Of a stretch of 64,000 bases of DNA, positions 478-56,994 are shown in pieces. Positions within the stretch are counted from its first letter, which is position 1; each line of letters opens with the position of its first letter. The notes beneath the pieces are model-generated. The model ran no database searches and had not been told where the DNA came from. It was given only the letters and a program-made list of their open reading frames with translations. The translations under genes and the position numbers were made by a program. The stretch is taken from the NCBI GenBank assembly GCA_963692995.1, contig OY843611.1, positions 2,874,440 through 2,938,439 of the forward strand, in the 5' to 3' direction. This stretch comes from Dehalococcoidia bacterium. GTDB taxonomy: Bacteria > Chloroflexota > Dehalococcoidia > Lucifugimonadales > UBA3495.

Positions 478-1739
478 AGCGCCTCGAAGTTCCGGGGGTA
501 TCCGTTCAGGCAGTTGTTGATCCACTCCCCATTTACCACGGACGGCGCGGCGGGCAGCCGTTCTTGCAGCGCGTGCATCAGCTCGCCGGCTACCTTCCCG
601 TCGCGGCAGGCCACCGCGACTTGTCGGGGCGATAGCCGGGCGATTTGATCGATGATCCGCGCCGGATTGGGACGTAGCGGCATTACTCCCGCCAAATCCT
701 CTGCCGGTCCCGCAGCCCGCAGGATCAGAAACAGCCGCGGGTCGTCGGTGATTACTAACTTCGCCGGCCGCGGCGGCAGGTTCATCCGGCCCAGCAGCGC
801 CGGCCGCTGCCCCGGCAACGCCGTCCAATTAGGCGCTTGGGCCGGCCACTGCCGTCGCGCATTCAGCTCTTGCCGCGCCACGCCGGTGAAACTCATTACT
901 CCGCCGGCATGATCCAGCTCCGCTACCGTGAGGTAGCCCGACATCCGTTCCCGCCGCCCGGCGCCCCGAAACAGCGGCGACTGGTCAATCTCTTCCGGCG
1001 TCAAGTCCTGCCGCAACAGATAGCCGCGCAGGCCGTAGCCCGAACAATATCCGATGCCCGCCGCCGCCGCCTGCTCAATAGTCAAGTCCAGCCGGGTCAA
1101 ATAGCTCACGGCCGCCGGCTCGACCAGCCGTTCCTCAAACCACAGGGCCGCTCGGGTCAAGAGCGCGGTGTTTTGGGGGCGCGGCGGTTCGTGGTAGGTG
1201 GGCGAGTGGTCGTACAAAATCGCCGCCGGCCGCGCGCCACGGGCGTTCTCCGGGTCTTGCAGCCACTGCCGCGCTTCCATGATCGCCATTCCCCAGATTC
1301 GCGCGGCGAAGGCGGCGGCGTCGCCCCGGACGCCGCAGGTCCGACAGCCGAAGAAGTTGTCGTCAACGCTGATCTCCAGCGTGCGCGTCGGCTGACGCCC
1401 CTGGCTGCGGTGAAAGGGACAGATTCCTTGCCAGCGGGCGTTCATTTCATCCCGCGGCGTCAGGTTCGCGCCGACCCCTTTAGCCAGGGGGATCAGCAGC
1501 CGGCCTTGGTCGGCGTCGGGAATGTAGCTGTTGCGGCGCTCCCGATTTGGCTCCGGCGCGGCGTCGGCGCCGGTTGCTCCGGCGGCTGCCGTTTCCGGCG
1601 CGGCGTCGGCGCCAGTTGCTCCGGCGGCTGCCGTTTCCGGCCCTTCGGCGGCTGCCTTTTCCGGCCCTTCGGCCAGGTTCGCCGTCTCGTGGCCCGGCTC
1701 GCCGCCCGCCGTTTCCGTTTCCGTTTCCGTTTGCAGCAT
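468..1739 (-). CDS. DnaG-like DNA primase (CHC2 zinc finger plus Toprim-like region) with an Ala/Glu/Thr-rich N-terminal tail
   Basis: 423-aa ORF. CHC2-type zinc-finger signature CPFHRSQGRQPTRTLEISVDDNFFGCRTCGVRGD, as in bacterial and phage DnaG primases. A later acidic stretch (KLVITDDPRLF) is consistent with Toprim. GC3 bias is strong. Confidence 0.7.
   Translation of the reverse strand: MLQTETETETAGGEPGHETANLAEGPEKAAAEGPETAAAGATGADAAPETAAAGATGADAAPEPNRERRNSYIPDADQGRLLIPLAKGVGANLTPRDEMNARWQGICPFHRSQGRQPTRTLEISVDDNFFGCRTCGVRGDAAAFAARIWGMAIMEARQWLQDPENARGARPAAILYDHSPTYHEPPRPQNTALLTRAALWFEERLVEPAAVSYLTRLDLTIEQAAAAGIGYCSGYGLRGYLLRQDLTPEEIDQSPLFRGAGRRERMSGYLTVAELDHAGGVMSFTGVARQELNARRQWPAQAPNWTALPGQRPALLGRMNLPPRPAKLVITDDPRLFLILRAAGPAEDLAGVMPLRPNPARIIDQIARLSPRQVAVACRDGKVAGELMHALQERLPAAPSVVNGEWINNCLNGYPRNFEALWA
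1555..1638. repeat. 42-bp tandem duplication (2 copies, 1 mismatch) inside the primase N-terminal tail
   Basis: ggcgcggcgtcggcgcc(g/a)gttgctccggcggctgccgtttcc occurs twice back to back. It encodes the duplicated peptide AAAGATGADAAPET. Confidence 0.9.
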
Positions 1740-1814
1740 GATAGTTCAGCTCCTTTTGCGCGGCCCGGCCCAATTGCCGGCTAAGAGCCGGGCCAGGTCG
1801 CTGGGGTCAATGAT

Positions 1815-1842
1815 CGCGGGGAACGACGCCCCGCCTTTTTAT
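1815..1842 (+). terminator. intrinsic-terminator-like hairpin plus T-run in the divergent primase/ATPase intergenic region
   Basis: GCGGGG (1815-1820), 7-nt loop, CCCCGC (1828-1833), followed by CTTTTTATT. No obvious upstream + strand gene, so its role is unclear. Confidence 0.3.
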
Positions 1843-1983
1843 TGCGGTTTCGGTTGCCAAGCCCGGCCGATCAGGATTTCGCGGGCGACGGTCTCCTCGG
1901 TGGCCTCAGCCCCCTCAATTGGCTGGTAGCGCAGGTAAATGTCCTGAAATCCAGATAACACCGCTGCGTTATCTCTCCGCTGT

Positions 1984-4900
1984 ATGAATTTTTCGGGAAA
2001 TGGCGCCGGCCCGCATTTCTTTCGCGCTCCCGGACCATCCGTCCAGGTCGCCCGCGCTTTGCCCCCCCGCGCCGGCCAGCACACCCTCCTGGGCCTGGAA
2101 TCGGCCCTGGCCTCCCTGCGCTACCCCGAAAGCCGGTTCGCCTTCGAGATCTACGGACAAAACGGACAAATCTTCTACCTCGTCCGCGCCGAAAACTACC
2201 CGCCCTTGCCCTATGTCCTCGCGTCCTGCTACCCCCAGGCGCAGTTCTCCGGCCTCGGCGACTACGCCGGCCGGGACGACGAAATGGCCCGCGACTGGCT
2301 CAGCCTCCGGCACGATGAACGACAGCACGTCCTGCTGGGACACCTGGCCGCCGAACCCTATCTGCCGCTGAAAAGCTGCGACGACCAGGGCCTTCGACAA
2401 GGCGAGGTTGACCCCTTGGCTTCCATCCTCGGCTACCTCGCCGCCGTCAGTCGCGGCGGCCGTCGCGTCGGGGTTCGTCTCCTGTTCCGTCCCGCGCCGT
2501 CGGACTGGGGCGCCGCCTGGCAGCGCAACTTGCAACGCCGTCTGGACCGCCAGGACTTGTCCACTGCTCCCACCGCTCCCGCCGCCGGACGCGCTGCCGA
2601 CGCCGGCTTTCTCGAAAGCGTTCCCATCTGGGCCTGGCTGGCGCTGGCCGGCGCCGGCGGCCTGGGCTACCTCAACTGGCTATTGATCCAGCAGCAAAAC
2701 TACCTGGCCGCCGCCGGCGCCGATGCCGCCGCCCTGACCCTCAGCGCCGGCAGCGTCTTCCTCTACCGACGCCTTTTCGGCAAGCCCGCAACCCGTCAGT
2801 ATTTCGATGAGCAAATGGTCGCGGATAAACTGGCTTCCCTGGGCTTCATAACCGAACTCCAGCTGACCGCTTTCCTGCCGGCCCAAGAAGGCGACGCCAT
2901 CGCCCAAGACCTGCTCAACGGACTGGCTGCCGCCTACGTTCAGTTCGATCACTCCGCCGGCAACCGCTGGCGCTGGAGCCGGCGCCGCACCCTCAAAACC
3001 CCCACGCAGCAGCTGCTAACTTCCGAACCGGCGCCCCCGCTGCTCGGCTTTCAACCCCTCGACAAGCGCCGCGCCCACCGCTCCATACTGTCCCCCCGCG
3101 AACTGGCTACCCTCTGGCACCTGCCCCTGGGCGAGTCCGAAGTTGCCGCGATGCCCCGCGCCGCCGCCCGGCAGCTCCGTCCCTACCTGCTGGGCGTGGA
3201 TGACGGCCCCCTGGTCGGACACGTGGTGGGTTCCGACGCTCCCGTGCGCGTGTCCGACGCCGCCCTGCGCCGGCATATGCTCCTGCTGGGCAAGTCCGGG
3301 ATGGGCAAGTCCACCTTTCTCAAGCACATCTTGCAAGGCAAGTTTCAGGCGAAAGCCCGCGGCGAGGATAGCGACGCTATCGTGGTGGTCGATCCCCACG
3401 CCGACCTGATCGCCGACCTCATGCCCCTGGTGCCGCCGGAAATCGCCCATCTCACCCGTCTCATCGACATCGGACGCGAAGACCGGGCGCCGGCCATCAA
3501 TCTCATCGACCCGGACCGCTTCGCCGACCGCGACCGCTGCATCGCCAGCATCGTCGATACCCTGCGCTTTCTCTCCGGCGTCGCCTGGGGACCGCGCATG
3601 CAGGCGATTTTCGATCACGGCCTGAAGGGTTTGTATGAGTACAACGCGCACCCGGATACGCCCTATCAGCAGCGCTTGACCCTGCTGGACCTGCTGCCTC
3701 TGCTGGCCGGCGCCGAACCCGCGCCAGCGGCGGCGGCGGCTAGTAGCGGCGGCCGCGGCCGACGGCCGCCGCCGGCGGCGCCCTCCGCTTTTCAGCAGCA
3801 AGTCCTGGCCCGCGTCAGCGATCCCGAAGTCCTGGCCTGGTTCCGCCGCTTTCAGGGCTGGAGCGATCAACTGCGCTCGGAAGCCCTCGCTCCCGTAGAA
3901 ACCCGCATCAGCGCCTTCGCTTCCGACGTCCGCGCCAGAGGCGTTCTGGGCCAGTGGGAAACTACCGTCTCCTTCAGCGATGCCCTGCGGGAGGGCCAGA
4001 TCATTCTGGTCAACCCGGCCAGCGGCGTGGTTGGCCCCTGGGTCTCCGCGCTGCTGGGCAGCACCGTGGTCGGCCTGCTGGATTCCGCGCTACGGGAACA
4101 GGAAAAACTGCCTCCGGACCAGCGCAAGCGCTGTCTGCTGGTCGCCGACGAATTTCATACTATCGTCGGCGCCAACTGGGAAGAACTTCTGGCCGGCATC
4201 CGCAAGTACGGTTGTGCTGTTTTATTGGCAACGCAAAGCATGGCCCGGCTGGATACCCCGGAACGTAACCTCAAGGACGGCGTGCTGGCGAATGTCGGCG
4301 GCATTGTTTGCTACCAGATGTCCGGGGGCGACGCCCGCATTATCGCCGATCAAGTCGGCCGCGAATCGGGCATTACCGAAACGGATCTGGTCAGCCTTGA
4401 CCCCTATTACGCCTACGTCAAACTGACGACGGGCGAGTCCAGCCTGCCGCCCTTCGCCATTCGCACCCGGGAGCCGGACGCCGGCGACCCGGCGGCGGCG
4501 CAGCTGATCATCGACGGCTTGCCTAATTACACCAGGGATCGCCGGGAGTCGCTGGCGGCCATTGCCCGCCGCATGGCCGAACACGAAGGCTTTCCGCTGC
4601 CGGCCGAGGCCGGCGCGACCGGCGCGGCGGCGGCCGGTTCCGATAGGGCCGGCGGCGGTGCCGGCGCGGCGCCGGAAGGAACCCGACTGCGCGGCGTGGC
4701 GGAAGATGCCGTAGCCGCCAGTCAGCTGGACGAAACCACTCTGGCGATGATCCAGCGCCATCTTCACGATCCCGGAGTCCAGGCGGTGTTTGACGCCGGC
4801 CTGAAAGGCCGGGTCAACAGCCTGGTCGCCCAGGGTCGTCGGGAGGACCGGGAGCGCATTCGCCAGGAAGAACGGGAGCGGGCGCAACGGGAGCGGCCGG

Positions 4901-40047: not shown

Positions 40048-40249
40048 GTGTTTTCCTCGCTGGTCGTCAGGCCCGCCGGTGGTGTGGTTCTTTTCTCTGA
40101 TGAGGTCCGTGTCGTGGGAGGGGAGTCATGTGTCGGTTTCTTGAACTGCCACCGGGGATTCGGCGGGTTGCCTGTTGTGCCGTGGCTTGGCTGGTTTCGA
40201 CGCCGGATCGCTGGCCCGGCGTGGGCTAACTGGCCGACTGCCGAGGTCG

Positions 40250-40588
40250 TTATACTGCGCCCCGGTGGCGAATGCCAGTCAGGTAGTCGTGCAGGGCATT
40301 CGCTTCTGCCGCTGAGGTCGCCTTGACCACTAACCCGCAACGGGTGCAGTGGTAGGGTATGATTCGCATCTCAATGGGCTTTCCATCGGTGGCAAATCCC
40401 GTCCGCACGTCCGTACAGCGGTGGTGAGACTCTATTGGTGTGCCGTCCGGCATCACTACTCCGAAGTCTGCACCGCAACTGCGGCAGTGGAAAAGCGTGA
40501 TTGGGGCGCCGTCTAAGCCAATGCCCCGCCAGGGGGAACCGTCGGCGGAACTGGTCAGATCGGGTTCGCCGACGGGGACAGTTGGCAA
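40250..40588 (-). CDS. double zinc-ribbon protein (112 aa), PYHC family
   Basis: TTG start with TGAGG upstream. Motifs are TLFHCRSCGADFGVV...HHRC and IIPYHCTRCGLVVKATSAAEANALHDYLTG. Confidence 0.6.
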   Translation of the reverse strand: MPTVPVGEPDLTSSADGSPWRGIGLDGAPITLFHCRSCGADFGVVMPDGTPIESHHRCTDVRTGFATDGKPIEMRIIPYHCTRCGLVVKATSAAEANALHDYLTGIRHRGAV

Positions 40589-40608
40589 CCAGTTGCCTCA
40601 ACTAGGCG

Positions 40609-41730
40609 TCATGCGTCCTCAGGGTCCTCATTAGTTATGACTGCTGCAATTTGCGGATTCAGCAAACGCCACCTTTGTCCCACTCGTTCGAGATCCCCTA
40701 TTGCAACTACTGGCTCTTTCCTCGTGTGAGCTTCAATCGCCTTGTGGTAATCAGATTGGCTCAACACCGCGACGACAGACCGAAGGTTCCCTGCGACGGA
40801 TGTTCGCAAGGTCACGGTTCCCTCAGTGTCGTCGTCATCACGTTTTAGCGTTTGTACGGAACACAGCAACTCAACATCCGGCTGCGGCTCCCGGTTGCGG
40901 AAAATCCGGGACGCCTCGCTCAGCATCGGCACGTCGTCCTGGGTAAACTGCACTGGACGTTGCGACAGTGTCACCGGCCGTGTTCTAGCCCAAGTGAACC
41001 GGATGTCGAGCGCGGAGAAGGGTTCAATCATCTGAACCAGCGCGTCACACAGGTTGGCGCTAATACCATCACTGATGGCGTTAGCGAATGCGTCTTTATC
41101 GCCGCTTACCGCCTTTTCGGACGCCTGCTTGGTCGCATGCAAAGCGTCGTACAGCCGTGTAGTTATTCGCCTTGCAACTGGGGGGTCAGCGTCGCCGGCG
41201 TCCTCAAGCAGAGGGCGTTGCAACGGCGGCACGATTACGGGAGGCAACAAAGTAACTATAAAACTGCCCGGCTCGGTTTGGCCCAGACGAACTTGCGACA
41301 GGAAATCCACGGCTTCCCGGTTGGCCCCGGCCCGGTAAAGCAGCTGGGGACTGTTCAGTGAACAGGCCGCTGCCAAAAGCATATCCCGCGCGCCGGAGAT
41401 CAAGCTGGCGCCTTCGTTTATATCAACCGTGCTATCGTCTTCAGCCACCCTCACCCGAATGACGTCCCGGTCCGTGGTCATTAAGTCTTTGCAGAGCGCA
41501 ATCTCGCTGATACCGGCAACGCGAGCCAGAATCTCGACTAACTGCGCGGTCACGCGTCCGTAGTCGCCGATGTCTCTAGTTCGGGGAACCAGTAATTCCG
41601 GCAACCCGACACCGGTGTACACATCGGAATGAGAACCAAAGATGTCAGTTTTGGTCCAGCCTTGACCACGTATGTAGGCCGCCAAGGCCGCGGGCGACAC
41701 TGCTGATCGGTCGTTTCGGTCTGGGATCAT
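40609..41730 (-). CDS. hypothetical protein (373 aa), downstream partner of the DUF4365 gene
   Basis: Its start overlaps the upstream stop (ATGA at 41727-41730). G+C is lower than the surroundings. No family recognised. Confidence 0.7.
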   Translation of the reverse strand: MIPDRNDRSAVSPAALAAYIRGQGWTKTDIFGSHSDVYTGVGLPELLVPRTRDIGDYGRVTAQLVEILARVAGISEIALCKDLMTTDRDVIRVRVAEDDSTVDINEGASLISGARDMLLAAACSLNSPQLLYRAGANREAVDFLSQVRLGQTEPGSFIVTLLPPVIVPPLQRPLLEDAGDADPPVARRITTRLYDALHATKQASEKAVSGDKDAFANAISDGISANLCDALVQMIEPFSALDIRFTWARTRPVTLSQRPVQFTQDDVPMLSEASRIFRNREPQPDVELLCSVQTLKRDDDDTEGTVTLRTSVAGNLRSVVAVLSQSDYHKAIEAHTRKEPVVAIGDLERVGQRWRLLNPQIAAVITNEDPEDA

Positions 41731-42242
41731 GGTAGTTGCGAGATCCTCCCAGTGCGGGACTGTTCCATGAGCGCCTTCAGTCCGTCAACATCAAACCGGT
41801 TTTGTTTCGGAATCCGGACGGTCACGCTAGTCTCGTTGTCGGTCTCATCCCGTCCCAACAGATTCAGCCAGTAGGCACGGCGCCTTATTATTAACTCGTC
41901 ATCGGCAATGGTCGCCCATCGTAGCGGGTCTTTTGGCAAGTCAAGCACCACCAGCAAACGCGGGGTCTGGGTTTCGATGCGCAGAAGGTCGTAGTTCCGA
42001 CGCAGTAGCGGGAAGGCTACACGGTCATCGCCGACATCGTGCAGGTTGACCGTCGCCTTCAACTGAAGTTCAAGGGCCGGCCGCATATCGCCCCCGGCCT
42101 GTATACGCAAGTCTATGCCGTCCCGGTCCCTCTCGTACACAGCGGTGACGTAACCGGCCCGCGCCGCTACCACTTGGGCATAGGCCATGGAAAGCAACTC
42201 CTCCTGGTCAGGACCAGTTAGCAGGCGGTCCTCCGACAACAT
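41727..42242 (-). CDS. DUF4365 domain protein (PD-(D/E)xK-like, 171 aa)
   Basis: EELLSMAYAQVVAARAGYVTAVYERDRDGIDLRIQAGG...ALELQLKATVN fits the DUF4365 pattern I recall (e..a.ayv.a.a...G......D.GiDl.i......l.vQlKat). GGAGAGG upstream of the ATG. Confidence 0.65.
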   Translation of the reverse strand: MLSEDRLLTGPDQEELLSMAYAQVVAARAGYVTAVYERDRDGIDLRIQAGGDMRPALELQLKATVNLHDVGDDRVAFPLLRRNYDLLRIETQTPRLLVVLDLPKDPLRWATIADDELIIRRRAYWLNLLGRDETDNETSVTVRIPKQNRFDVDGLKALMEQSRTGRISQLP

Positions 42243-42465
42243 GGCGCCTCTCCGAAGCGAGATCGTGGCATGTACTCGCCGTCCGCAACTCGTAGCCGGC
42301 GGCTATAGCGCTAGGCAGGCTCGCCACACGCCGCCGGTTAGGATCAGATTTTTGCCGACTGGTTGAGTTGCCGCGTATGACCGCCTCGCCACACCAGGCT
42401 AGGCGCGGCGATTGTAGCAAGCGATTGTGCAGGTTGATAGTACAGGGGATTCGCGTCAGCAACCC

Positions 42466-43083
42466 TCAGTCCCTCGGCTCAATGAGCGTCGGCTCCCCCA
42501 GGAATTGGATCGTCGCGCCGTCGGCGCCGTCGGTGTTTAGCCCGGCGCCTTCCAGCAGAAAACTGTGCGCCTTAGCGTCGTCCAGTTCCGTTACCAGCGT
42601 CCGGTGGCGATCCGGCGCTACCGGCAGCACGGTCAGCAGGGTGATGCCGTCTGCGGAATGAGCAAAGACGCTGAGCCGGTATTCTGCCAAGTTCGCCTCC
42701 GGGGGCCAGCTGACCGCCACTACGCCCGGTTCGTCCGTCCAGTCGGCGGTCAGGCGCGCCGGCGGTTCCGGCGTGGGCGTGGGTGGCGGCTCCGGCGTCG
42801 GCGGCTCTGCCGTGGCCGCGGGCGGCGGCTCCGGCGTGGCCGTGGGCGTCGGCTCCGGCGTGGCCGTGATGGTGGGCCGGGGAACCGCAGTCGCCGTCGG
42901 CGCAATGGTCGCCGCACGGGTCGCCGCTGGCTCCGTCGGCGCCGCCGCCGTCGCGCTGGCCGCGGTGGGCAGCGGACGGGCCAGCGGCTCCGCTGGGGTC
43001 GTGCAGCCGGCGGCGCTCAGCGCGACGGCAATGACGCCGCCAATGAGCAGGAAGCTGGGGCGAGGGAATGGGACGCGAAACAT
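42466..43083 (-). CDS. lipoprotein with a Pro/Thr/Ala-rich linker and an FN3-like C-terminal domain (205 aa)
   Basis: ATG at 43083 (MFRVPFPRPSFLLIGGVIAVALSAAGC, with lipobox) follows GGAGGA. The domain sequence LTADWTDEPGVVAVSWPPEANLAEYRLSVF resembles the N-terminal domain of the LRR protein. Confidence 0.65.
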   Translation of the reverse strand: MFRVPFPRPSFLLIGGVIAVALSAAGCTTPAEPLARPLPTAASATAAAPTEPAATRAATIAPTATAVPRPTITATPEPTPTATPEPPPAATAEPPTPEPPPTPTPEPPARLTADWTDEPGVVAVSWPPEANLAEYRLSVFAHSADGITLLTVLPVAPDRHRTLVTELDDAKAHSFLLEGAGLNTDGADGATIQFLGEPTLIEPRD

Positions 43084-43245
43084 GGCAAATCCTCCGGGGA
43101 CAATATTACGGGTGCAACGACGATTGTTCAAATCTCTGGCCGGACGTGGGCCGCGCCGATCCCGACGGCAATCAAGAAATCAGCCCCGCCGCGACTGCGA
43201 CAGGGCTGACCGGCGACGCCGCCGGATCAGGCCGGCGCCAGCGGC

Positions 43246-44499
43246 CTAGTTAGTCCAGCCCAAGGCCGCCTTGATCTCGGCCAGGCTGCAAACGGACAGC
43301 CCGGCAATTTGGCGCGTTGTTCCGCCCAGTCGGTAGTGGCAGATCAGCGTCGGCTCCGGGCGGGATACCGTCCCGTCGGACGGCGATCTTCCCGACTGGG
43401 ACGGCGCCTGGGGCGGCACGGTTATGCTTTGAGCCTTTCCTCGCTTGCCGTCGCGGTAGCTGTTCAGTATGTACCGGCTTCCCACTTCGGGGCGCGGGTT
43501 CTCGTGCTGAAGGGAGTTGCCGTAGGTAGTCAGCAATTCCCACCGGCCCCGGTCCGGCAGATATTCAACGGTGTAATACTGCGCCGGACAATTCCGGTTT
43601 ACGTCCCAGGTCAGATTGATCCGGCTGCGGTCGTCTTGCGGCGACTCGCGCCGGAACCGGCGGGGAGTGTGATCGCAGCCGGGTTTGCCGGCCAGCGGCT
43701 CCCCGCGGTTGCCCGGCGGCTCTTCGCTACTCGCCGGCGGCTCTTCGCTGTTGCCCGGCGGCGACTCGCTGTTCGACTGGCCGCCGCTGCGCACGGTGGT
43801 TTGCAGTCGCTGGCCGGACTCCTTCCCGTTGCGGACACTGATCAGCCGATAGGACAACGGCCCGGTCGCCGGGGCGCTTCGGTCCAGGTAGGTGGTAGCG
43901 CCGCTAATCTCTACCTGGTCATCGGGACTGCTTGCATCGTCCGTTATTCGCAAAACGATGTAGGAATCGGCCCGGCAGTCGCTTCGATACGACCAGGTGA
44001 GCCGGATTGCGCCGTTTTGCGGGTCGTTGTTGAAACGCCTGGGCAAATGAACGCACGGCTCTTTTCCGGGGACTTTGATGGAGCGACCCATGGCCGAGTC
44101 CACGCCGTCGCGAACGCCCTTCAGGACGTAGGTTGTTTCTTTTTCCGGATTGCTTTGGCTATGTACAAGGTAACTGCGATGGGTGTTGAACTCCCCGTCT
44201 CCCGTGTCCGGGCGTATTGAGATGCGGAAATAGTCTGCCGGACAGTCGGCGTTTATCGACCAGGTTAGCCTGACCTTGTTGCCCTCTTGTCGGCGGTAGC
44301 GGAACCGCGATGGCGTGTAGTCGCATTCTGCGTCGGCGACGGGGAGCACTCCGCCGTTTGCCGCTAAAGGCGCCCCGACGGTAGCAGCGGTAGCCGGGGG
44401 CGCTCCGCCGCTCGTGGCCGACAGCAGGCCGACGGCCAGGGCCGCGGTCATAAGGCCGCCGGCGACCAGCGCCGCCGGCATTTGGTATCGTCTGAACAT
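43246..44499 (-). CDS. secreted protein with three Cys-bracketed FN3-like repeats (417 aa)
   Basis: ATG at 44499 follows AGGAGG. A signal/TM segment reads MPAALVAGGLMTAALAVGLLSA. Three modules are present: CDYTPSRFRYRRQEGNKVRLTWSINADCPADYF, CVHLPRRFNNDPQNGAIRLTWSYRSDCRADSY and CDHTPRRFRRESPQDDRSRINLTWDVNRNCPAQYY. Confidence 0.7.
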   Translation of the reverse strand: MFRRYQMPAALVAGGLMTAALAVGLLSATSGGAPPATAATVGAPLAANGGVLPVADAECDYTPSRFRYRRQEGNKVRLTWSINADCPADYFRISIRPDTGDGEFNTHRSYLVHSQSNPEKETTYVLKGVRDGVDSAMGRSIKVPGKEPCVHLPRRFNNDPQNGAIRLTWSYRSDCRADSYIVLRITDDASSPDDQVEISGATTYLDRSAPATGPLSYRLISVRNGKESGQRLQTTVRSGGQSNSESPPGNSEEPPASSEEPPGNRGEPLAGKPGCDHTPRRFRRESPQDDRSRINLTWDVNRNCPAQYYTVEYLPDRGRWELLTTYGNSLQHENPRPEVGSRYILNSYRDGKRGKAQSITVPPQAPSQSGRSPSDGTVSRPEPTLICHYRLGGTTRQIAGLSVCSLAEIKAALGWTN

Positions 44500-44571
44500 A
44501 ACAATGCACCTCCTGGCATTTTGTTCAGACAGATAACCCGACGCCAATGCTGCCGGCCGGCAACGCCGGGG

Positions 44572-45303
44572 TCAGTTCCGGCCCGGCAGTTCGGCCCATC
44601 CCGCCGGCATCTCGTCCCACGTCCGCCCGTCCAGCTCCCGACCATTCCGCTTCTTGAATACGCCGCCCCACTGCTTGAAATGAAAAGGCACGCCAGCGTC
44701 AAGGCACTGGTCGCGGATGTCCCGCGCCCAATCGGGTTGCATCGGACGGGCGCCCGGCCCGGATTCGCCGCCCACAATCACCCAGTCAATCCCTTCCAGA
44801 TTCAGATTGGGCAACGGGCCGAGCAGCGGTTCCAGCGAGAGGAACTTCACGGCGGCGCCGGTCTCGCGCAATTGGTCAATGCGATGGGCGTACTTCCCGT
44901 TCTCCACGCTGACGCCCAGCCCGACTTGCGCCGGCCAGGGCAGGCGTGAGTTGAGACTGGCCAGGCGCTCCGGCCGCTTGGTCAGTACCTGGTAACGGTG
45001 CCAATCGGCGCGGGCCATTACGTCGAACACCTCCGCGATGAACTCATCCGGCACCTTCGGGTGAAACAAGTCGCTCATGGAGTTGACGAAAATGGCCCGC
45101 GGCCTCGGCCAGCGCAAGGGCATTGCCAGCGTGTCGGGATGCAGGGTTACGGTAAAGCCGTTGCGATACTTGGCGACGCCCATGGCCTGGAGCCGCTTTG
45201 CCATTCGCTCGGCGTAGCAGCGCTGGCAGCCGGGGCTGATCTTGTCGCAGCCGGTGACCGGGTTCCAGGTGGCGTCGGTCCACTCGATCTTGGACGCGGC
45301 CAT
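44572..45303 (-). CDS. phage Gp37/Gp68 family protein (DUF5131)
   Basis: [35 protein letters not shown] is the hallmark N-terminus of this family. ATG at 45303 follows AAAGGAG. Confidence 0.8.
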
Positions 45304-45468
45304 GCTGACTCCTTTCTTCCTTGAGGGTAACGAAAAAGTCTTGGCGAGATGCTGAGACTTTTGGTCAGATGGCGCGACGTGGCGAGAACGCAATTTGATC
45401 AACGCTTTTGCCGAACTTGGAGCGAGCAGGGGCGTAGCAACAGCGCTATTAGGCAGCGCTTGTGGTTG

Positions 45469-45984
45469 CTAGGGCGGTTGCCAGTCAAATCTGGCACCAA
45501 ACGCGCGTAGCATAGCGATGGTATTCATGCTGCGGATTTGGAACTGATTGCAGAGGTCAGGCAGTGGAACTTTGCGTTTCGCATCCGGCGCGGAGACTTC
45601 GTTGGTTACTACGACTGCGCCGTGAACAATGGCATAGGCAGCGAGCCAACCGTCCGCTCCTCGAGCGAAATCAGCGCGGGCCACTGGGGTGAATTGCGAG
45701 TTTTCCTGTACCCAATCCATTAGTTGCTGATAAGCATTGGCGACGGGCGGTGTAGCCGTAGTAGGAAAGTAGTCGTTAGTAGCCTGTTTTATCCACTGAG
45801 ATAGCTCTAAGGGATGGATTATTTCGGCGCTTACTCGATCTATAATCAGGAGATGTCCGGTAGCCAAGTGGTGAATCAGCCAGTCCCAAAAGCCGGGGAA
45901 CAGGTCCGGTGGGTAGCGATTACGGTACGCCGCGATCAGGACATCGGCATCCGGCAAGTAGCGAGTTTGACCGTGATTGGTCAT
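45469..45984 (-). CDS. DUF4411 family (PIN-like) protein
   Basis: YLPDADVLIAAYRNRYPPDLFPGFWDWL matches the DUF4411 N-terminal signature. Its start overlaps the upstream stop (ATGA). Confidence 0.75.
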   Translation of the reverse strand: MTNHGQTRYLPDADVLIAAYRNRYPPDLFPGFWDWLIHHLATGHLLIIDRVSAEIIHPLELSQWIKQATNDYFPTTATPPVANAYQQLMDWVQENSQFTPVARADFARGADGWLAAYAIVHGAVVVTNEVSAPDAKRKVPLPDLCNQFQIRSMNTIAMLRAFGARFDWQPP

Positions 45985-47147
45985 AGACGGAGGGCCATCT
46001 TTTCGGGCATATTGGCAAAAGCAGAGGGGCTCAGATCGGTGAGGACGCAGGCTTCACGGTACGGCAAACGGCCGGCTTGCATGGCGCGCACTACCGTCTC
46101 GGCAAAGCGTCGTCCGATGCGCCAGCTTTGGTTATTCCAGAAATTGCCGCTGCTCTTGGTTAGCTGGCTGCGGCTTCCCTGGTTTTTGTGAGCGTTATAG
46201 AAATCAAAAAATGTCTCTCGGTCAATCAAGTCCAAGTCAAGAGCGCGGCGCGCGGCTACAATGCGGCTGACTTTGAAGTGGTGCGCTGCTTGCTGGTAGG
46301 GATCGAGATATTCGCCGACGTAATCCCAGAACTCTCTGAATTCAATCTCCGGCACTAGAAACTCTGCCGCTATTTTATCGCACAGTTGTTCAGTAGCGTG
46401 TGCCGATGGCAGCAGTAACTCAAAGGCCGAAACCCCTTCTGATCCGACGAAAAGATGCGCTAATTCATGGGCCAGGGTGAACATCTGAGCAGATCTGAAG
46501 TCGGCGTTATTCACGAAGATGAACGGGGCGTACTCGTCCACCAACGCAAAGCCTTGGAATTCGCCAGGGTTGAGCTTGCGGCTGGTGTTGTTGCCCACCA
46601 CCCCGTTGCAGACTACCAGTATGCCGGCGCGCTCCGCCTGATCCCGAAGCAGTCGGATGGCGTCGGACCAGGTGGGCGCGGATGAAGCCCAATCGTCGTC
46701 AAGTAGGAGCGCATCGCGCATTGCGCCGGCCACCGCTCCGTAATCCCCGTTGAGATGGTGAGCGCCGACGAAATCAAGGGGATCGGCGCCGGTGTCAATC
46801 AATTCTTCTCGCATCCAGTCCTGACGCCGCTGCATCGAGTAAATTGTTTCCAGCAAGTCAACGCTGGGACGCGCCGGCGCCTCACTGGCGCGGGTGCGGA
46901 AGTCTTGAATGGGCAGATGCTCATAGGGCGGGAAAGACAGGAACAAGTAACCCAAAGGCGTATGGGTGGCATGGGCTAGTCGCTTGGCCCAGGCCATGCT
47001 GATTTGGCCGGAGCGTTCCCATTCCAGAACCCGCTCTACGCGCAGCTTGATCTTCTGCGCCAGTGCATCGTGCTTCAACTCGGCCCGCTCACGCGCCCAG
47101 CGTAGAACGTCAGGTTGTAGTAGCAGAAGTTCCGGTTGGCGAGTCAT
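45981..47147 (-). CDS. XRE-type HTH plus ImmA/IrrE family zinc metallopeptidase
   Basis: The N-terminal HTH-like region reads LRWARERAELKHDALAQKIKLRVERVLEWERSG. The HExxH motif lies in FTLAHELAHLFVG. Confidence 0.8.
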   Translation of the reverse strand: MTRQPELLLLQPDVLRWARERAELKHDALAQKIKLRVERVLEWERSGQISMAWAKRLAHATHTPLGYLFLSFPPYEHLPIQDFRTRASEAPARPSVDLLETIYSMQRRQDWMREELIDTGADPLDFVGAHHLNGDYGAVAGAMRDALLLDDDWASSAPTWSDAIRLLRDQAERAGILVVCNGVVGNNTSRKLNPGEFQGFALVDEYAPFIFVNNADFRSAQMFTLAHELAHLFVGSEGVSAFELLLPSAHATEQLCDKIAAEFLVPEIEFREFWDYVGEYLDPYQQAAHHFKVSRIVAARRALDLDLIDRETFFDFYNAHKNQGSRSQLTKSSGNFWNNQSWRIGRRFAETVVRAMQAGRLPYREACVLTDLSPSAFANMPEKMALRL

Positions 47148-47805: not shown

Positions 47806-49296
47806 TTATTTTTGGTCTCGGATCAGGTCAATGCGGACGGTGCCGGCGGGGCTGCTCCATCCGGTGAAGCCGGTTCCGTCATAGTGTTTCCAGGTTATGT
47901 TCCGGCTGGTATAGACGAATTTGTATCGCGCGTTCAGCTTGTGCGCCCGGCTTACCGTTTCGTCGTAATTTTCCAGGGATGCGTATATGTAGATCGCCCT
48001 GAGGCGGTGCAATCGCTCCCGGACCAAGGGGTGCAGGTCATTGAGCCGGTTTTCGTCAATGCCAATGTTATTTAGTTTGGGCAGATGGTCAAACCATTGG
48101 TGATTTAGCGTCGCCAGCGGATTTCCCGAAACTTGTAGGGTATGCAATGAGGGAAGATTTTCAAAGGCGTCGGGGCGGATCTCGGCGATGCCATTGTCGC
48201 GGAGGTCAAGAATGCCCAGTCTTGTTTGGGCGGGGAACAGATCGGGTGGCAGCCGGGTCAGGCCGGGGTTCTGGCAAAGGTCAAGCACGCGCAGGCCGGT
48301 TAGTCCGGCGAAGGTTCCTGGCTCCAGGGCGGTAAGTTTGTTGCCGCACAGGACCAGGTATTGCAGACTGGCGAGATCATTGAAAAGATTGGGATCGATA
48401 CTTGCCAGCTGGTTGTCTTGAATCCAGAGTCGCTTTAAGCGGGGCAGGTTACGGAAAGTCCCCGGTTCGATTTCGGTCAGCTGATTGTGGCCGAGATAGA
48501 GAATGGATAGCTCAGGCAGGTTCTGGAAGGTGTCGGGATGCAGTTCGCTGATCCGGTTGGTGTGCAGCCAGAGTTGGGTCAGATTAGGCAGGTTCTGAAA
48601 GAGGTCGGGATGCAGTTCGCTGATCCGGTTTTCGGACAGAATTAGTCTGCTCAGATTGGGCAGGTCATTGAAGTCGCCGGGCTTCAGGGCAGTCACTTCT
48701 TTTTGTTGCAGAACCAGGAGGGTGACCTGGGCGAGGTCTCCCGCGGTTACTTCCGAGCAGCGGCTTTTGTCGGTTTGCCGGATCAGTTCGGCAACCACTT
48801 CGGGGGTACGGTCGCAAACCGGTATCGGCCCGGTTCGGGGTTTGGGGGTGGGAAGGACAGCGGATAACCAAGCGGCGCGGTTGGGCAGCCGGATCAGTGC
48901 GCTGGGGTTGGACCAATTGTTCTGATAGTGCGCCGCGTTTTTACGTCGGGCGATGATCTGAAAGGTGTAGTCCGCCTCTTCGTTCAGGCCGTTAACCGGG
49001 TAAATGTAGCGTTCTTCACCTCCGCCGGGGATGGCGTCGGGAAGCCAGCGGAGCCGGTTTTCCGTGTTATCGGTCAGGTGTATCCAATAGGAATGGGCGT
49101 CGAGCAGGGGCTGCCAGCTGAGTTGTACAGCGCCGTTGGCCTCGTCCCAGTGGGCGGTTAGGTCAAACTGGTGGCGGGGCAGGGCTTCGTGATCCGGTCC
49201 GTCGGCAAAGGTGGGCAGAGCGGCGGCTGAAATTGTTGCGAAGAAGCCGGCGACGAACAGAGCGAGAACGGAGAGCGTGAACTTGGCATAAGACAT
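47806..49296 (-). CDS. secreted leucine-rich-repeat (LRR) protein with an FN3-like N-terminal domain (496 aa)
   Basis: ATG at 49296 (MSYAKFTLSVLALFVAGFFATISAAA) follows AAGGAGA. It has about 11 consecutive ~24-aa LRRs, e.g. LPNLSRLILSENRISELHPDLFQN, LPNLTQLWLHTNRISELHPDTFQN and LPELSILYLGHNQLTEIEPGTFRN. Confidence 0.8.
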   Translation of the reverse strand: MSYAKFTLSVLALFVAGFFATISAAALPTFADGPDHEALPRHQFDLTAHWDEANGAVQLSWQPLLDAHSYWIHLTDNTENRLRWLPDAIPGGGEERYIYPVNGLNEEADYTFQIIARRKNAAHYQNNWSNPSALIRLPNRAAWLSAVLPTPKPRTGPIPVCDRTPEVVAELIRQTDKSRCSEVTAGDLAQVTLLVLQQKEVTALKPGDFNDLPNLSRLILSENRISELHPDLFQNLPNLTQLWLHTNRISELHPDTFQNLPELSILYLGHNQLTEIEPGTFRNLPRLKRLWIQDNQLASIDPNLFNDLASLQYLVLCGNKLTALEPGTFAGLTGLRVLDLCQNPGLTRLPPDLFPAQTRLGILDLRDNGIAEIRPDAFENLPSLHTLQVSGNPLATLNHQWFDHLPKLNNIGIDENRLNDLHPLVRERLHRLRAIYIYASLENYDETVSRAHKLNARYKFVYTSRNITWKHYDGTGFTGWSSPAGTVRIDLIRDQK

Positions 49297-49427
49297 GGCT
49301 TGATCTCCTTGGATAAGGGGCTGGCTGGTTGGGAAGGTGGCCCGGAAACGGGCCATCGTAAAATTCCGGGTTATCTGTTTGCTGCGAGATAACGCGGGCG
49401 GCGGGACGCCGGCCCGACGGGAAGGCG

Positions 49428-54669: not shown

Positions 54670-56994
54670 ATGACCAGGGCAATGACGGCGGCGACGCGGC
54701 GGATCAAAAGGGCGACGGCCGATTTGCTGCGTCCGCAGCGGCACGTCGGCGACCTGCTGGGCGTGGACGCCGCCGGCGCCGACTTCGTGCTGGGTAGCGA
54801 CGGAGCGCGCACTTGCGCCTGGCAGATCGCCAGCCAGGATTTCCGCGACGAACGGACGCTGGCGGCCTGGCGGCGCTTTCTGCTGGCCCTGCGCTTTCCG
54901 GCGTCCTTTCTGGTGCGGCAGCATCCGCCGGGGTTCGGCGAACTGATCGACTGGTTCGAGCGGCGTCGTCCGCCGGGGCTGAGTTCGGGCGTTCCGGCCG
55001 CCGTCGGCGACTCCCTGACCCACTGGCTAAACCGCCTGCCCGGCGACGGGGACGCGCTGGATCGGGAAATCTACCTGCTGACCGGTCAGGATCACGCCGC
55101 CGACGCGGAGTCCCTGCTGGTCGCGGCCGGCTGGGCCGCCCGCCCGGTGTCCGGCGACGATCTGCGACGGCTGTGGGCGGCCAGCGTAGCCGGCCGTTCC
55201 GCCAGCTCCTGCTACGGGATGGAGCCGGGGGATGTGGCCGTTCCCGACTGCGCGCCGGGCGTGAGCAGCCTGCGCCTGGGCCAGCGCTGGGTTCGGGTCT
55301 TTGAAGTTGACCAGTGGCCGCGGCGGCTCTCGCCGATGTTTCTGGAAAGCGTGTTCGGCCTGGGCTTTGAGTTGGACTTCATCCTGCGCCTGTACCCGCT
55401 GAACAAGGCGGAATCCCTCGGCTTTCTCAATATGAAGAAACTGGCTTTCGAGTCCCAGCAGATCCATCTGATCAAGCGGGGCCGGCTGGTGCCGCCGGAG
55501 GTGGAAGGCGGCATCGGCGACGCGGATCGGATGCTGGAACAGCTCAGCCGCAACGAAGGCGGCCTGTTCCGGGTCGCCGCGTCGCTGGCCCTGTACTGCG
55601 ACACGCCGGAAGCCCTGGAGGAAGCCGGTCGGCAGGTCAAAATCCATTTCCAGGGCATGCAGGCCGGCGCCCGTCCCTTCCGCTTGCGCCAGGGCGAAGC
55701 CTTTGCCCGGCTGATGCCCCGAATGCAGTCGCCCCTGGGCGCTTTGCATATGGTGGATCAGGGAACGGTGGAACGCCTCTTTCCCTTCGGCCCGCCCCGG
55801 CTCAACACCGGGGTGGGCATTCCTTTCGGGATGGATTTCCGCAGCCGCGACGTGGTGGTCTTCGACCGTTTCGCCACCGGCGGCTTCACGGCGGAATCGG
55901 ACCGGCTGGGGGTGGGCGAAGTCCGTCGCAACCCGCATATGACGGTGCTGGCGCCGGCCGGTTCGGGGAAGTCTTTCGCGGTCAAGGTGCTGGCCCTGCG
56001 GGAATGCAGCCGGGGCATTCCGGTGTATTTGATTGACCCGGAAGGGGAATACGCCTTGTTGGCTCGGCAGATGGGCGGACGGGTTTTCCATCCGGGCCGG
56101 GAGAACTCCGGCGTCAACCCCTTTCAGCTGATCTATCAGTCGGTGGATCAATTGGCGCTGCAAGTGGCCGGGCTGGTTGCGCTGCTGGAGATGATGCTGG
56201 CCCGGCGCGGGCCGGCGTCGGGCCTGGAGACGACGCTGGACTATTGCCTGAACCGGTTTTATCAGCAGGAACTGGCGCAAGCGACGGAGCCGTCGCCGGT
56301 TCTGGGCAACGGCGGGATTTTCGCCTTTGAGCGTTTCCTGCGGGAGCTGGCGGTCAGCGTCGTCGAAGCCGGGACGCTGGCCGACGAACTGGCTCCCTTC
56401 GTTACCGGCAGCTATCGGTTTCTTTTCGCGCAAGAAGGGGACTCCGCCCTGGTCCAGCGGGAGGAAGCGCCCTTCACCGTGTTCAATTTGCAGGCGCTGC
56501 ACGACGATATGAAAGCGGCGGCGACGATGCTCTGCTGCCAGACGGTGTGGGGGCTGGCGATGTCGGTGACCCGGCCTCGGCTGATGGTGGTTGACGAATG
56601 CTGGACGGTGCTGATGTCGCCCAGCGGCGCGCAGGCTCTGATGACCATGGTCAAGCGGGGGCGCAAGTATCGTTTGGGACTGGTTACGATTACGCAGGAC
56701 ATTGAGGACTTTCTGGACGGGGACAGCCAGGCGGGGCTGGCTGGCCACGCCGGACTGTCGCTGCTGGCTAATTCCGCGGACTGCTTTCTGCTGCGGCAGA
56801 GTCCGGGGGCGGCGGAACTGATCCAACGCAAGTTGGCCTTGAGCGATGAACAGCGGGTTTTCTTGACCCAGGCGCGGGTGGGCGAAGGACTGCTGCTGAC
56901 GGATCAGGGCAGTTTTCCGGTGCGGGTGGTGGCGACGCCGGCCGAGTACGAACTGATTGAGAACGACGGCTGGCGCAGGGACGCGGCGGGTTAG
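54670..56994 (+). CDS. virB4: VirB4 / TraE / TrbE-like type IV secretion ATPase (774 aa)
   Basis: Walker A is VLAPAGSGKSFAVKVL. Walker B is LMVVDECWTVL. Downstream sequence reads GRKYRLGLVTITQDIEDFLDG. The N-terminal half has the typical VirB4 length and layout. Confidence 0.8.
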   Translation: MTRAMTAATRRIKRATADLLRPQRHVGDLLGVDAAGADFVLGSDGARTCAWQIASQDFRDERTLAAWRRFLLALRFPASFLVRQHPPGFGELIDWFERRRPPGLSSGVPAAVGDSLTHWLNRLPGDGDALDREIYLLTGQDHAADAESLLVAAGWAARPVSGDDLRRLWAASVAGRSASSCYGMEPGDVAVPDCAPGVSSLRLGQRWVRVFEVDQWPRRLSPMFLESVFGLGFELDFILRLYPLNKAESLGFLNMKKLAFESQQIHLIKRGRLVPPEVEGGIGDADRMLEQLSRNEGGLFRVAASLALYCDTPEALEEAGRQVKIHFQGMQAGARPFRLRQGEAFARLMPRMQSPLGALHMVDQGTVERLFPFGPPRLNTGVGIPFGMDFRSRDVVVFDRFATGGFTAESDRLGVGEVRRNPHMTVLAPAGSGKSFAVKVLALRECSRGIPVYLIDPEGEYALLARQMGGRVFHPGRENSGVNPFQLIYQSVDQLALQVAGLVALLEMMLARRGPASGLETTLDYCLNRFYQQELAQATEPSPVLGNGGIFAFERFLRELAVSVVEAGTLADELAPFVTGSYRFLFAQEGDSALVQREEAPFTVFNLQALHDDMKAAATMLCCQTVWGLAMSVTRPRLMVVDECWTVLMSPSGAQALMTMVKRGRKYRLGLVTITQDIEDFLDGDSQAGLAGHAGLSLLANSADCFLLRQSPGAAELIQRKLALSDEQRVFLTQARVGEGLLLTDQGSFPVRVVATPAEYELIENDGWRRDAAG

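Follow-up and report, generated by a model that had tools for sequence, protein, structure and literature searches.

Two overlapping genes, termed A and B, on the minus strand of a 64,000-nucleotide stretch of contig OY843611.1 from a Dehalococcoidia bacterium (the whole stretch is termed the window here) are by their profile matches an ordinary copy of PDC-M02, a phage-defence candidate catalogued in PADLOC. The preferred reading of the pair, to which a probability of about 0.6 is assigned, is that B docks on the DUF4365-type nuclease A and that a cue from an invader licenses or directs DNA cleavage, which would protect both the host and the mobile element that carries the two genes. A preliminary description of this DNA had suggested a candidate uncharacterised defence or abortive-infection pair, and this is supported by the DUF4365 profile and by the synteny of the partner gene. 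It had also named no known system with this pair, which is corrected by the match to PDC-M02.

The features of the pair are given below. The two minus-strand open reading frames and their ATGA overlap had been described earlier with these coordinates, which are exact by an open reading frame scan.

Gene A, 41727–42242, minus strand: 171 aa, ATG start; predicted DUF4365 (DREN-type) PD-(D/E)xK nuclease, equivalent to PADLOC PDC-M02A (open reading frame scan and profiles).
Catalytic core of A, 42057–42200, minus strand: residues E15, D39, D41, D44, E58, Q60 and K62 (conservation in homologues).
Overlap ATGA, 41727–41730, minus strand: the start codon of B lies on the stop codon (TGA) of A (open reading frame coordinates).
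Gene B, 40609–41730, minus strand: 373 aa, ATG start; PADLOC PDC-M02B, with no Pfam or NCBIfam family (open reading frame scan and profiles).
Non-coding leader 5′ of A, 42243–42465, minus strand: 223 nt, with a GGAGAGG ribosome-binding site and weak hexamers (read from the sequence).

The assignment of A to DUF4365, made at first from the letters of the sequence, agrees with the profile search, where A matches Pfam PF14280 (DUF4365) with an E-value of 2.6e-23 (83 bits, cut-off 24.3). In PADLOC, A matches the PDC-M02A model (PDLC04278) at residues 9–166 of 171 (E-value = 1.1e-52) and B matches the PDC-M02B model (PDLC04298) at residues 2–368 of 373 (E-value = 3.8e-116). The best 25 of the 38 PADLOC matches of B are to PDC-M02B models only. 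B has no match in Pfam, and a search of NCBIfam shows no match for A or B. PDC-M02 is called by a match to the A model, a match to the B model and adjacency on one strand, and all three are found here, with A and B both on the minus strand and 4 bp shared between them. The arrangement of the genes (order, strand and start/stop overlap) is that of 70 of 80 related loci, both proteins match the models of the family nearly end to end and nothing essential differs from it. The PDC set (“phage defence candidates”) was drawn from genes found within BREX, DISARM and type I restriction-modification (R-M) loci and was added to PADLOC (bioRxiv 10.1101/2024.01.29.577857); PDC-M02 has its source in this guilt-by-embedding study (Payne, Hughes, Fineran and Jackson 2024). 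The window copy alone adds little, since PDC-M02 is already catalogued.

The overlap of the start codon of B with the stop codon of A implies a probable translational coupling of the two genes. The non-coding stretch upstream, attributed to the pair in the preliminary description, is real, and a GGAGAGG Shine-Dalgarno sequence is found just ahead of the ATG of A. The promoter-like hexamers described there, TTGCTG-17-TATCAA, are present 5′ of A and agree with the sigma-70 consensus at 7 of 12 positions. Their role as a promoter is nevertheless unsupported, because a consensus scan of positions 40100–42600 displays 0 sites, with 0.8 expected by chance. The lower G+C content that had been noted for the pair stands: it is 57.6% versus 65.0% for the window, which is the 3rd percentile among all 1634-bp windows, and G+C at third codon positions is 62%–69% in the pair versus 73%–83% in the conjugation and replication genes of the window. 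No terminator is predicted between the stop codon of B and the next minus-strand open reading frame (40250–40588), which begins 20 nt past that stop codon; therefore the transcription unit may run past A and B. The 40250–40588 open reading frame encodes 112 aa with a weak zinc-ribbon match under the Pfam cut-off and may be co-transcribed with the pair. No third gene equivalent to it is conserved across the related loci.

Patterns derived from B were scanned over one genome per species. At least 567 stretches encode relatives, and the best 80 loci were kept. These 80 B-centred loci were chosen for an intact B and are nearly all from metagenome-assembled genomes (MAGs) of Chloroflexota, Latescibacterota, Acidobacteriota, Binatia, Proteobacteria, Spirochaetia, Gemmatimonadota and others. 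A homologue of A is located directly 5′ of B on the same strand in 70 of the 80 loci. Of the 69 junctions that could be measured, 36 overlap by 4 bp and 20 by 1 bp. An annotated DUF4365 gene is also found directly 5′ of plasmid B homologues of 23%–27% identity in Streptomyces, Pusillibacter, Phaeobacter, Entomospira and Rhizobium. The best viral structural match to B is a protein of Leptospira phage LE1 (E-value = 3.6e-20); LE1 genes 0038 and 0037 match PDC-M02A and PDC-M02B, with the DUF4365 neighbour 5′ of the B-like protein. The preliminary description had staked its proposal on synteny of DUF4365 and the partner gene in other genomes, and this synteny is what is observed, in distant plasmids and a phage as well as in the 70 loci. 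As judged from gene order and codon overlap, the arrangement shows B to be an obligate, translationally coupled partner of A.

The distribution of B is patchy. The genome of the window has one copy. In the same genus, one to three copies, of 26%–75% identity and at differing sites, are present in 17 of 25 genomes, and in other families of the same order 2 of 16 genomes carry a copy. Such a patchy, multi-copy distribution with shifting sites is as expected of mobile accessory conflict genes. The B family is of near-constant length and very large, with 1218 matches in a word-indexed search and 4428 representatives of 50%-identity clusters in an exhaustive search (E-value ≤ 1e-3).

Several loci display altered forms of the pair. 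Internal stops or frameshifts are found in the A sequence 5′ of an intact B in L003, L005, L007, L046 and L062, as well as in L045, L059 and L074. Of these, L003 and L005 belong to a single MAG, as two copies with a common stop at query residue 74. Two proteins (P0227 and P0215) have a part of DUF4365 joined to B and are possible fusions, and in two others (P0138 and P0126) B, or the first 268 residues of B, is joined to tetratricopeptide (TPR) repeats that replace or follow its C-terminal domain, an oligonucleotide/oligosaccharide-binding (OB) fold by prediction. All four could be gene-calling artefacts.

Weak matches to the first 90 residues of B in genomes of the same genus were the start of an analysis of the partner genes. 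An A-centred search over the same 41 genomes kept 30 loci, and hidden Markov models (HMMs) were built for B residues 1–97 and 98–373. The HMM of residues 1–97 matches the open reading frame directly 3′ of the nuclease in 30 of 30 loci (independent E-values of 1e-7 to 1e-49). The HMM of residues 98–373 matches the partner in 19 of them, and these are termed canonical; the other 11 partners carry an unrelated remainder. Four of the 11 are PDC-S11-like, three share the start of the PDC-S11-like module and have a shorter, different tail, and two have PF28530. One more has a tail suspected, with weak support, to be DUF433-like, and the last is 124 residues from stop to stop and has no C-terminal module.

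In locus L094 (positions 1630–3434; also L096:2209–4004 and L095) a DUF4365 gene, of 40% identity to A, shares 4 bp with a gene of 438 aa. The 438-aa protein matches PDC-M02B over positions 1–97 only (E-value = 2.3e-25), and its residues 112–423 correspond to a complete PDC-S11 protein, including DUF4268. By these matches the L094 type of module is a chimera of two PADLOC candidates. DUF4268 is associated with GmrSD type IV enzymes (PMC4619093) and has been put forward as a motif by which the MdgA/B defence proteins recognise their substrate (10.1101/2025.02.28.640651). The partners in L116 and L122 join the M02B N-terminal domain to PF28530, which is also found with PF22722 and Mrr_cat (PF04471) in Mrr-like proteins of ~320 aa, one of them labelled “Mrr-cat superfamily restriction endonuclease”. 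Proteins P0283 and P0325 were noted along with these two partners, and PF28530 and the N-terminal domain are found together in proteins of ~429 aa. Sequence searches of the PDB with three alternative C-terminal modules gave chance-level matches only, save for the DUF433-type region of VapBC49 (E-value = 0.13), which is no more than a hint.

The chimeric pairs thus have a nuclease homologous to A, the same domain of ~97 residues and the same 4-bp overlap as the window pair, but a PDC-S11-type or PF28530 remainder is in place of the helical domain and OB fold of the window B. The simplest reading is that residues 1–97 of B couple it to the nuclease and that the rest is a swappable module for recognition or sensing.

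Residues E15, D39, D41, D44, Q60 and K62 of A do not vary across 46 full-length homologues; 45 of these have D or E at position 58. In a set extended to 25% identity, D44, Q60 and K62 are still invariant. An alignment of the A profile with EcoRV is marginal (E-value = 0.038), with E15, D44, Q60 and K62 of A in exact register with E45, D74, D90 and K92, the catalytic residues of EcoRV. A PDB sequence search with A alone found nothing. The Q60-x-K62 motif of A corresponds to the Q62/K64 active site of TmuRE. Given the conserved E15/D44/Q60-x-K62 site and its register with EcoRV, A looks like an active-type PD-(D/E)xK nuclease with an intact site.

TmuRE is part of a SPARDA system. DUF4365 is the DREN nuclease domain of the SPARDA short-Argonaute systems, where it is a proven DNase effector (PMC10810196). 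The TmuRE Q62A/K64A form served as an inactive control, and DNA cleavage required both TmuRE and its Argonaute (PMC10810196). The window pair shares with SPARDA (TmuRE-Ago, NbaSPARDA) the DUF4365/DREN domain and the Q-x-K motif, and by analogy a partner-dependent activation is likely here as well. In SPARDA, however, an APAZ domain is fused to the nuclease and a short Argonaute (MID-PIWI) is adjacent, whereas A consists of DUF4365 only (171 aa) and the window pair has no Argonaute beside it. In Pfam and PADLOC, neither of the flanking open reading frames (40250–40588 and 42466–44547) matches an Argonaute, and B as an APAZ- or Argonaute-like partner was rejected, as neither its sequence nor its fold matches. 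With no APAZ, no Argonaute and a B that is unlike either, the cue would not be guide-directed target recognition.

The structure of B was modelled with AlphaFold2. The model of the full protein, from 28 homologues, has a mean predicted local distance difference test score (pLDDT) of 80.7, and a second model, of residues 1–282, has a pLDDT of 87.3 and a predicted template-modelling score of 0.84. The predicted parts of B are as follows.

B residues 1–97, 41440–41730, minus strand: alpha-beta-beta-beta-alpha(-alpha-beta), probable DUF4365-docking module (AlphaFold2 models and HMM).
B residues 98–282, 40885–41439, minus strand: helical bundle with small beta elements (model, pLDDT 87.3).
B residues 283–364, 40639–40884, minus strand: predicted OB fold (beta1–3, helix, beta4–5) with a conserved GQRWRLLNP (order of secondary structure and Foldseek).
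B residues 365–373, 40609–40638, minus strand: acidic tail TNEDPEDA, plus the stop codon (sequence).

A Foldseek search of the PDB with the full B model finds only OB folds, with single-stranded DNA-binding (SSB) domains 3koj and 2hql at E-values of 8e-3 to 2e-2, probabilities of 0.99–1.0 and template-modelling (TM) scores of 0.46–0.54. The same region matches OB and SSB proteins in BFVD. The first ~60 residues of B display a weak local match to the HicA fold (6g26; probability 0.98–0.99, TM score 0.66–0.70, E-value 0.2–0.3), which is a hint only. This local match apart, a fold search of residues 1–282 against the PDB gave no credible relative, the best E-value being 0.044 with a probability of 0.25; matches to KpsE, cytochrome bc1 and similar folds were rejected (probability ≤ 0.25). 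The PDB sequence search with the B profile found only a de novo helical bundle (E-value = 8e-4) and a chance match. The helical region (residues 98–282) contains the invariant motifs RLGQTE-GSF (148–157), SANLC (224–228) and WA-T-P (247–252). The tail is acidic in many relatives, with at least four acidic residues among the last 12 in 56 of the 80 B homologues.

The mechanism proposed for the pair has four steps. A and B would form a complex through the N-terminal domain of B, and A alone would be kept inactive or untargeted. The variable part of B (the helical domain, OB fold and acidic tail) would then recognise a phage or plasmid cue, most likely a nucleic-acid feature, and this recognition would license or direct the cutting of DNA by A. 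The host and the element would thereby be protected, whether through direct restriction of the invader or through indiscriminate degradation of DNA, i.e. abortive infection. A restriction-like logic is favoured by the reader-type modules of the alternative partners, and an activation-dependent collateral cleavage by the SPARDA precedent. The preferred reading also draws on the genomic company of the pair, which is of a defence type: HsdR- and HsdS-type proteins are among the nearest neighbours in related loci, PDC-M24B and PDC-M23B candidates are close by in some of them, and the pair is spread patchily over genomes, plasmids and a temperate phage.

A restriction-like logic could also operate in another manner. 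The pair may be a constitutive two-subunit type IV-like restriction endonuclease that involves no suicide, in which B reads modified, single-stranded or unusual DNA and tethers a non-specific A. This is judged unlikely, although several observations speak for it. The alternative partners carry modules linked to type IV enzymes, DUF4268/PDC-S11 and PF28530 (the latter elsewhere fused to Mrr_cat), the active site of A aligns with that of EcoRV, and B has a predicted OB fold and an N-terminal fold resembling HicA or a double-stranded RNA-binding domain. The pair is also often beside type I R-M genes; 10 HsdR-type and 8 HsdS-type proteins are among the 128 nearest neighbours in 66 related loci. 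Mrr-family type IV enzymes likewise combine a PD-(D/E)xK nuclease with a recognition module, and PF28530 is common to them and to one alternative partner. They are single chains, however, whereas here the nuclease and the part for recognition are separate chains joined by a predicted docking domain, and A is DUF4365, not Mrr_cat, although of the same catalytic architecture (EcoRV alignment, E-value = 0.038). The canonical B, including that of the window, has no recognised modified-DNA reader, its OB domain is not basic and the pair has no nucleoside triphosphatase or translocase. The best-studied DUF4365 nuclease, that of SPARDA, is a collateral, activation-dependent DNase, which speaks against a constitutive enzyme.

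It is improbable that the pair serves as a toxin-antitoxin or addiction module for the stability of the conjugative element, with A as the constitutively toxic nuclease, B as its protein antitoxin and phage protection as a side effect; in such a module, A would be set free once the element is lost, and the cell would die. The tight gene overlap and the occurrence on an integrated conjugative element, plasmids and a temperate phage are compatible with such a module, and an acidic B with its acidic tail could mimic DNA and block the nuclease. Loci with an intact B and a defective A, which recall orphan antitoxins, also occur: among 78 B-centred loci, 15 have a degraded A and 10 have none (25 of 78), but these loci were ascertained on an intact B, hence the asymmetry is not claimable and a claim that A decays more often than B was dropped. 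The converse is found in about 4 of the 30 A-centred loci, where A is intact and B is interrupted or truncated, which should be lethal for a simple pair. Most type II antitoxins are small proteins that evolve fast, and a DNA-binding autorepressor domain is frequent among them, but B is 373 aa in length, is encoded downstream and is as conserved as A. The exchange of its C-terminal part for DNA-reader modules is more in keeping with a specificity subunit than with an antitoxin.

That the two genes have no defence role and process DNA for a mobile element (recombination, repair or the processing of transferred single-stranded DNA) is very improbable: the location inside a conjugative element, between replication and transfer genes, and OB folds, which are typical of single-stranded DNA handling, would suit this, but the pair is found in contexts unrelated to conjugation (type I R-M genes, chromosomal islands, a phage and plasmids, with 10 of the 16 matching plasmid records non-mobilizable), is missing from some genomes of a genus and has up to three divergent copies in others, and is linked to no particular relaxase or type IV secretion system gene in the 80 loci.

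Several points weigh against the reading of the pair as a cue-licensed defence nuclease. The defence status of PDC-M02 is one of genomic association only: a literature search with several spellings found no paper that names PDC-M02 or reports an experimental test of it, and PDC-M02 is not among the defence candidates that were assayed in a cold-seep study. In the window, the pair is located on a conjugative element and outside any restriction, BREX or DISARM locus, whereas the original prediction came from genes inside type I R-M, BREX and DISARM loci. B is found with no detectable A in 10 of the 80 loci. The 5′ genes in these loci were considered as divergent DUF4365 genes and this was rejected for nine of the ten (L048 was not scanned); the genes that replace A in the nine encode a PIN protein, a HamB-like helicase (PDC-M23B), a DUF1828/DUF1829 protein (PDC-M24B), a nucleotidyltransferase, HsdS, an epimerase, a GLUG protein or an unknown product. 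The Foldseek E-value for the OB fold is only ~1e-2, and a simple single-stranded DNA-binding role is not assured, since the net charge is −2 for the OB domain and the isoelectric point is 4.9 for the whole of B. In addition, the helical core of B, with its invariant polar QTE and SANLC, could be an enzyme or ligand pocket that the docking model leaves unexplained.

The preferred reading of PDC-M02 can be extended, tentatively and at slightly less than even odds, to a larger class of split nucleases that is as yet undescribed. PDC-M02 would be the commonest form of this class, which would consist of DUF4365 and the docking domain of ~97 residues together with interchangeable recognition modules (helical plus OB, PDC-S11/DUF4268, PF28530, possibly DUF433-like, and TPR). 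Specificity would evolve by cassette swapping at a fixed locus, and the central helical domain of B would be a new sensor or enzymatic fold. The PDC-M02 family is worth attention because of its size, with its 4428 representatives in many phyla, on plasmids and in one phage, and because it uses the nuclease of SPARDA without an Argonaute. A docking domain with swappable modules is a design for studying the coupling of one common nuclease to various sensors, and the N-terminal domain of B together with A could supply a small, portable adaptor-nuclease pair for engineering.

In the window, A and B are probably low-G+C cargo of an integrated conjugative element, located between its replication and transfer genes. 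A VirB4-type ATPase is encoded at positions 54670–56994 (PDB 4ag5, E-value = 8e-24). The neighbours of the pair are the zinc-ribbon open reading frame and secreted-type proteins, and other candidates, the DUF5131 gene and the DUF4411 and ImmA genes described below, are found 2–4 kb off.

Other PADLOC candidates occur near B in the related loci. A DUF1828/DUF1829 protein (PDC-M24B, E-value = 5e-100) is found within 6 kb of B in 13 of the 80 loci, e.g. L017:4487–5266, L042:7113–7913 and L047:4419–5315. It is sometimes directly 5′ or 3′ of B, and it replaces A in L043 and L047. At L026:2741–5977 a HamB-like DEAD-box helicase of 1078 aa (PDC-M23B, E-value = 0) is at the usual place of DUF4365 and has a 4-bp overlap with the start of the B homologue.

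Three further loci of the window contain genes of related interest. Positions 44572–45402 encode a DUF5131 protein (Pfam E-value = 2e-104) that matches PDC-M41B and PDC-M30B in PADLOC at ~1e-117. At positions 45469–47147 a DUF4411 gene (171 aa) shares 4 bp (45981–45984) with a gene for an ImmA/IrrE-type Peptidase_M78 of 388 aa; their G+C content is 54%–57%, the peptidase has weak RmrA and CapP matches in PADLOC, and the two genes look like a second candidate conflict pair. Positions 47806–49356 encode a 516-aa protein that displays strong leucine-rich repeats (LRR_8, E-value = 2e-55) and a weak fn3 match, and it is next to a repeat protein of 1734 aa and VirB4.

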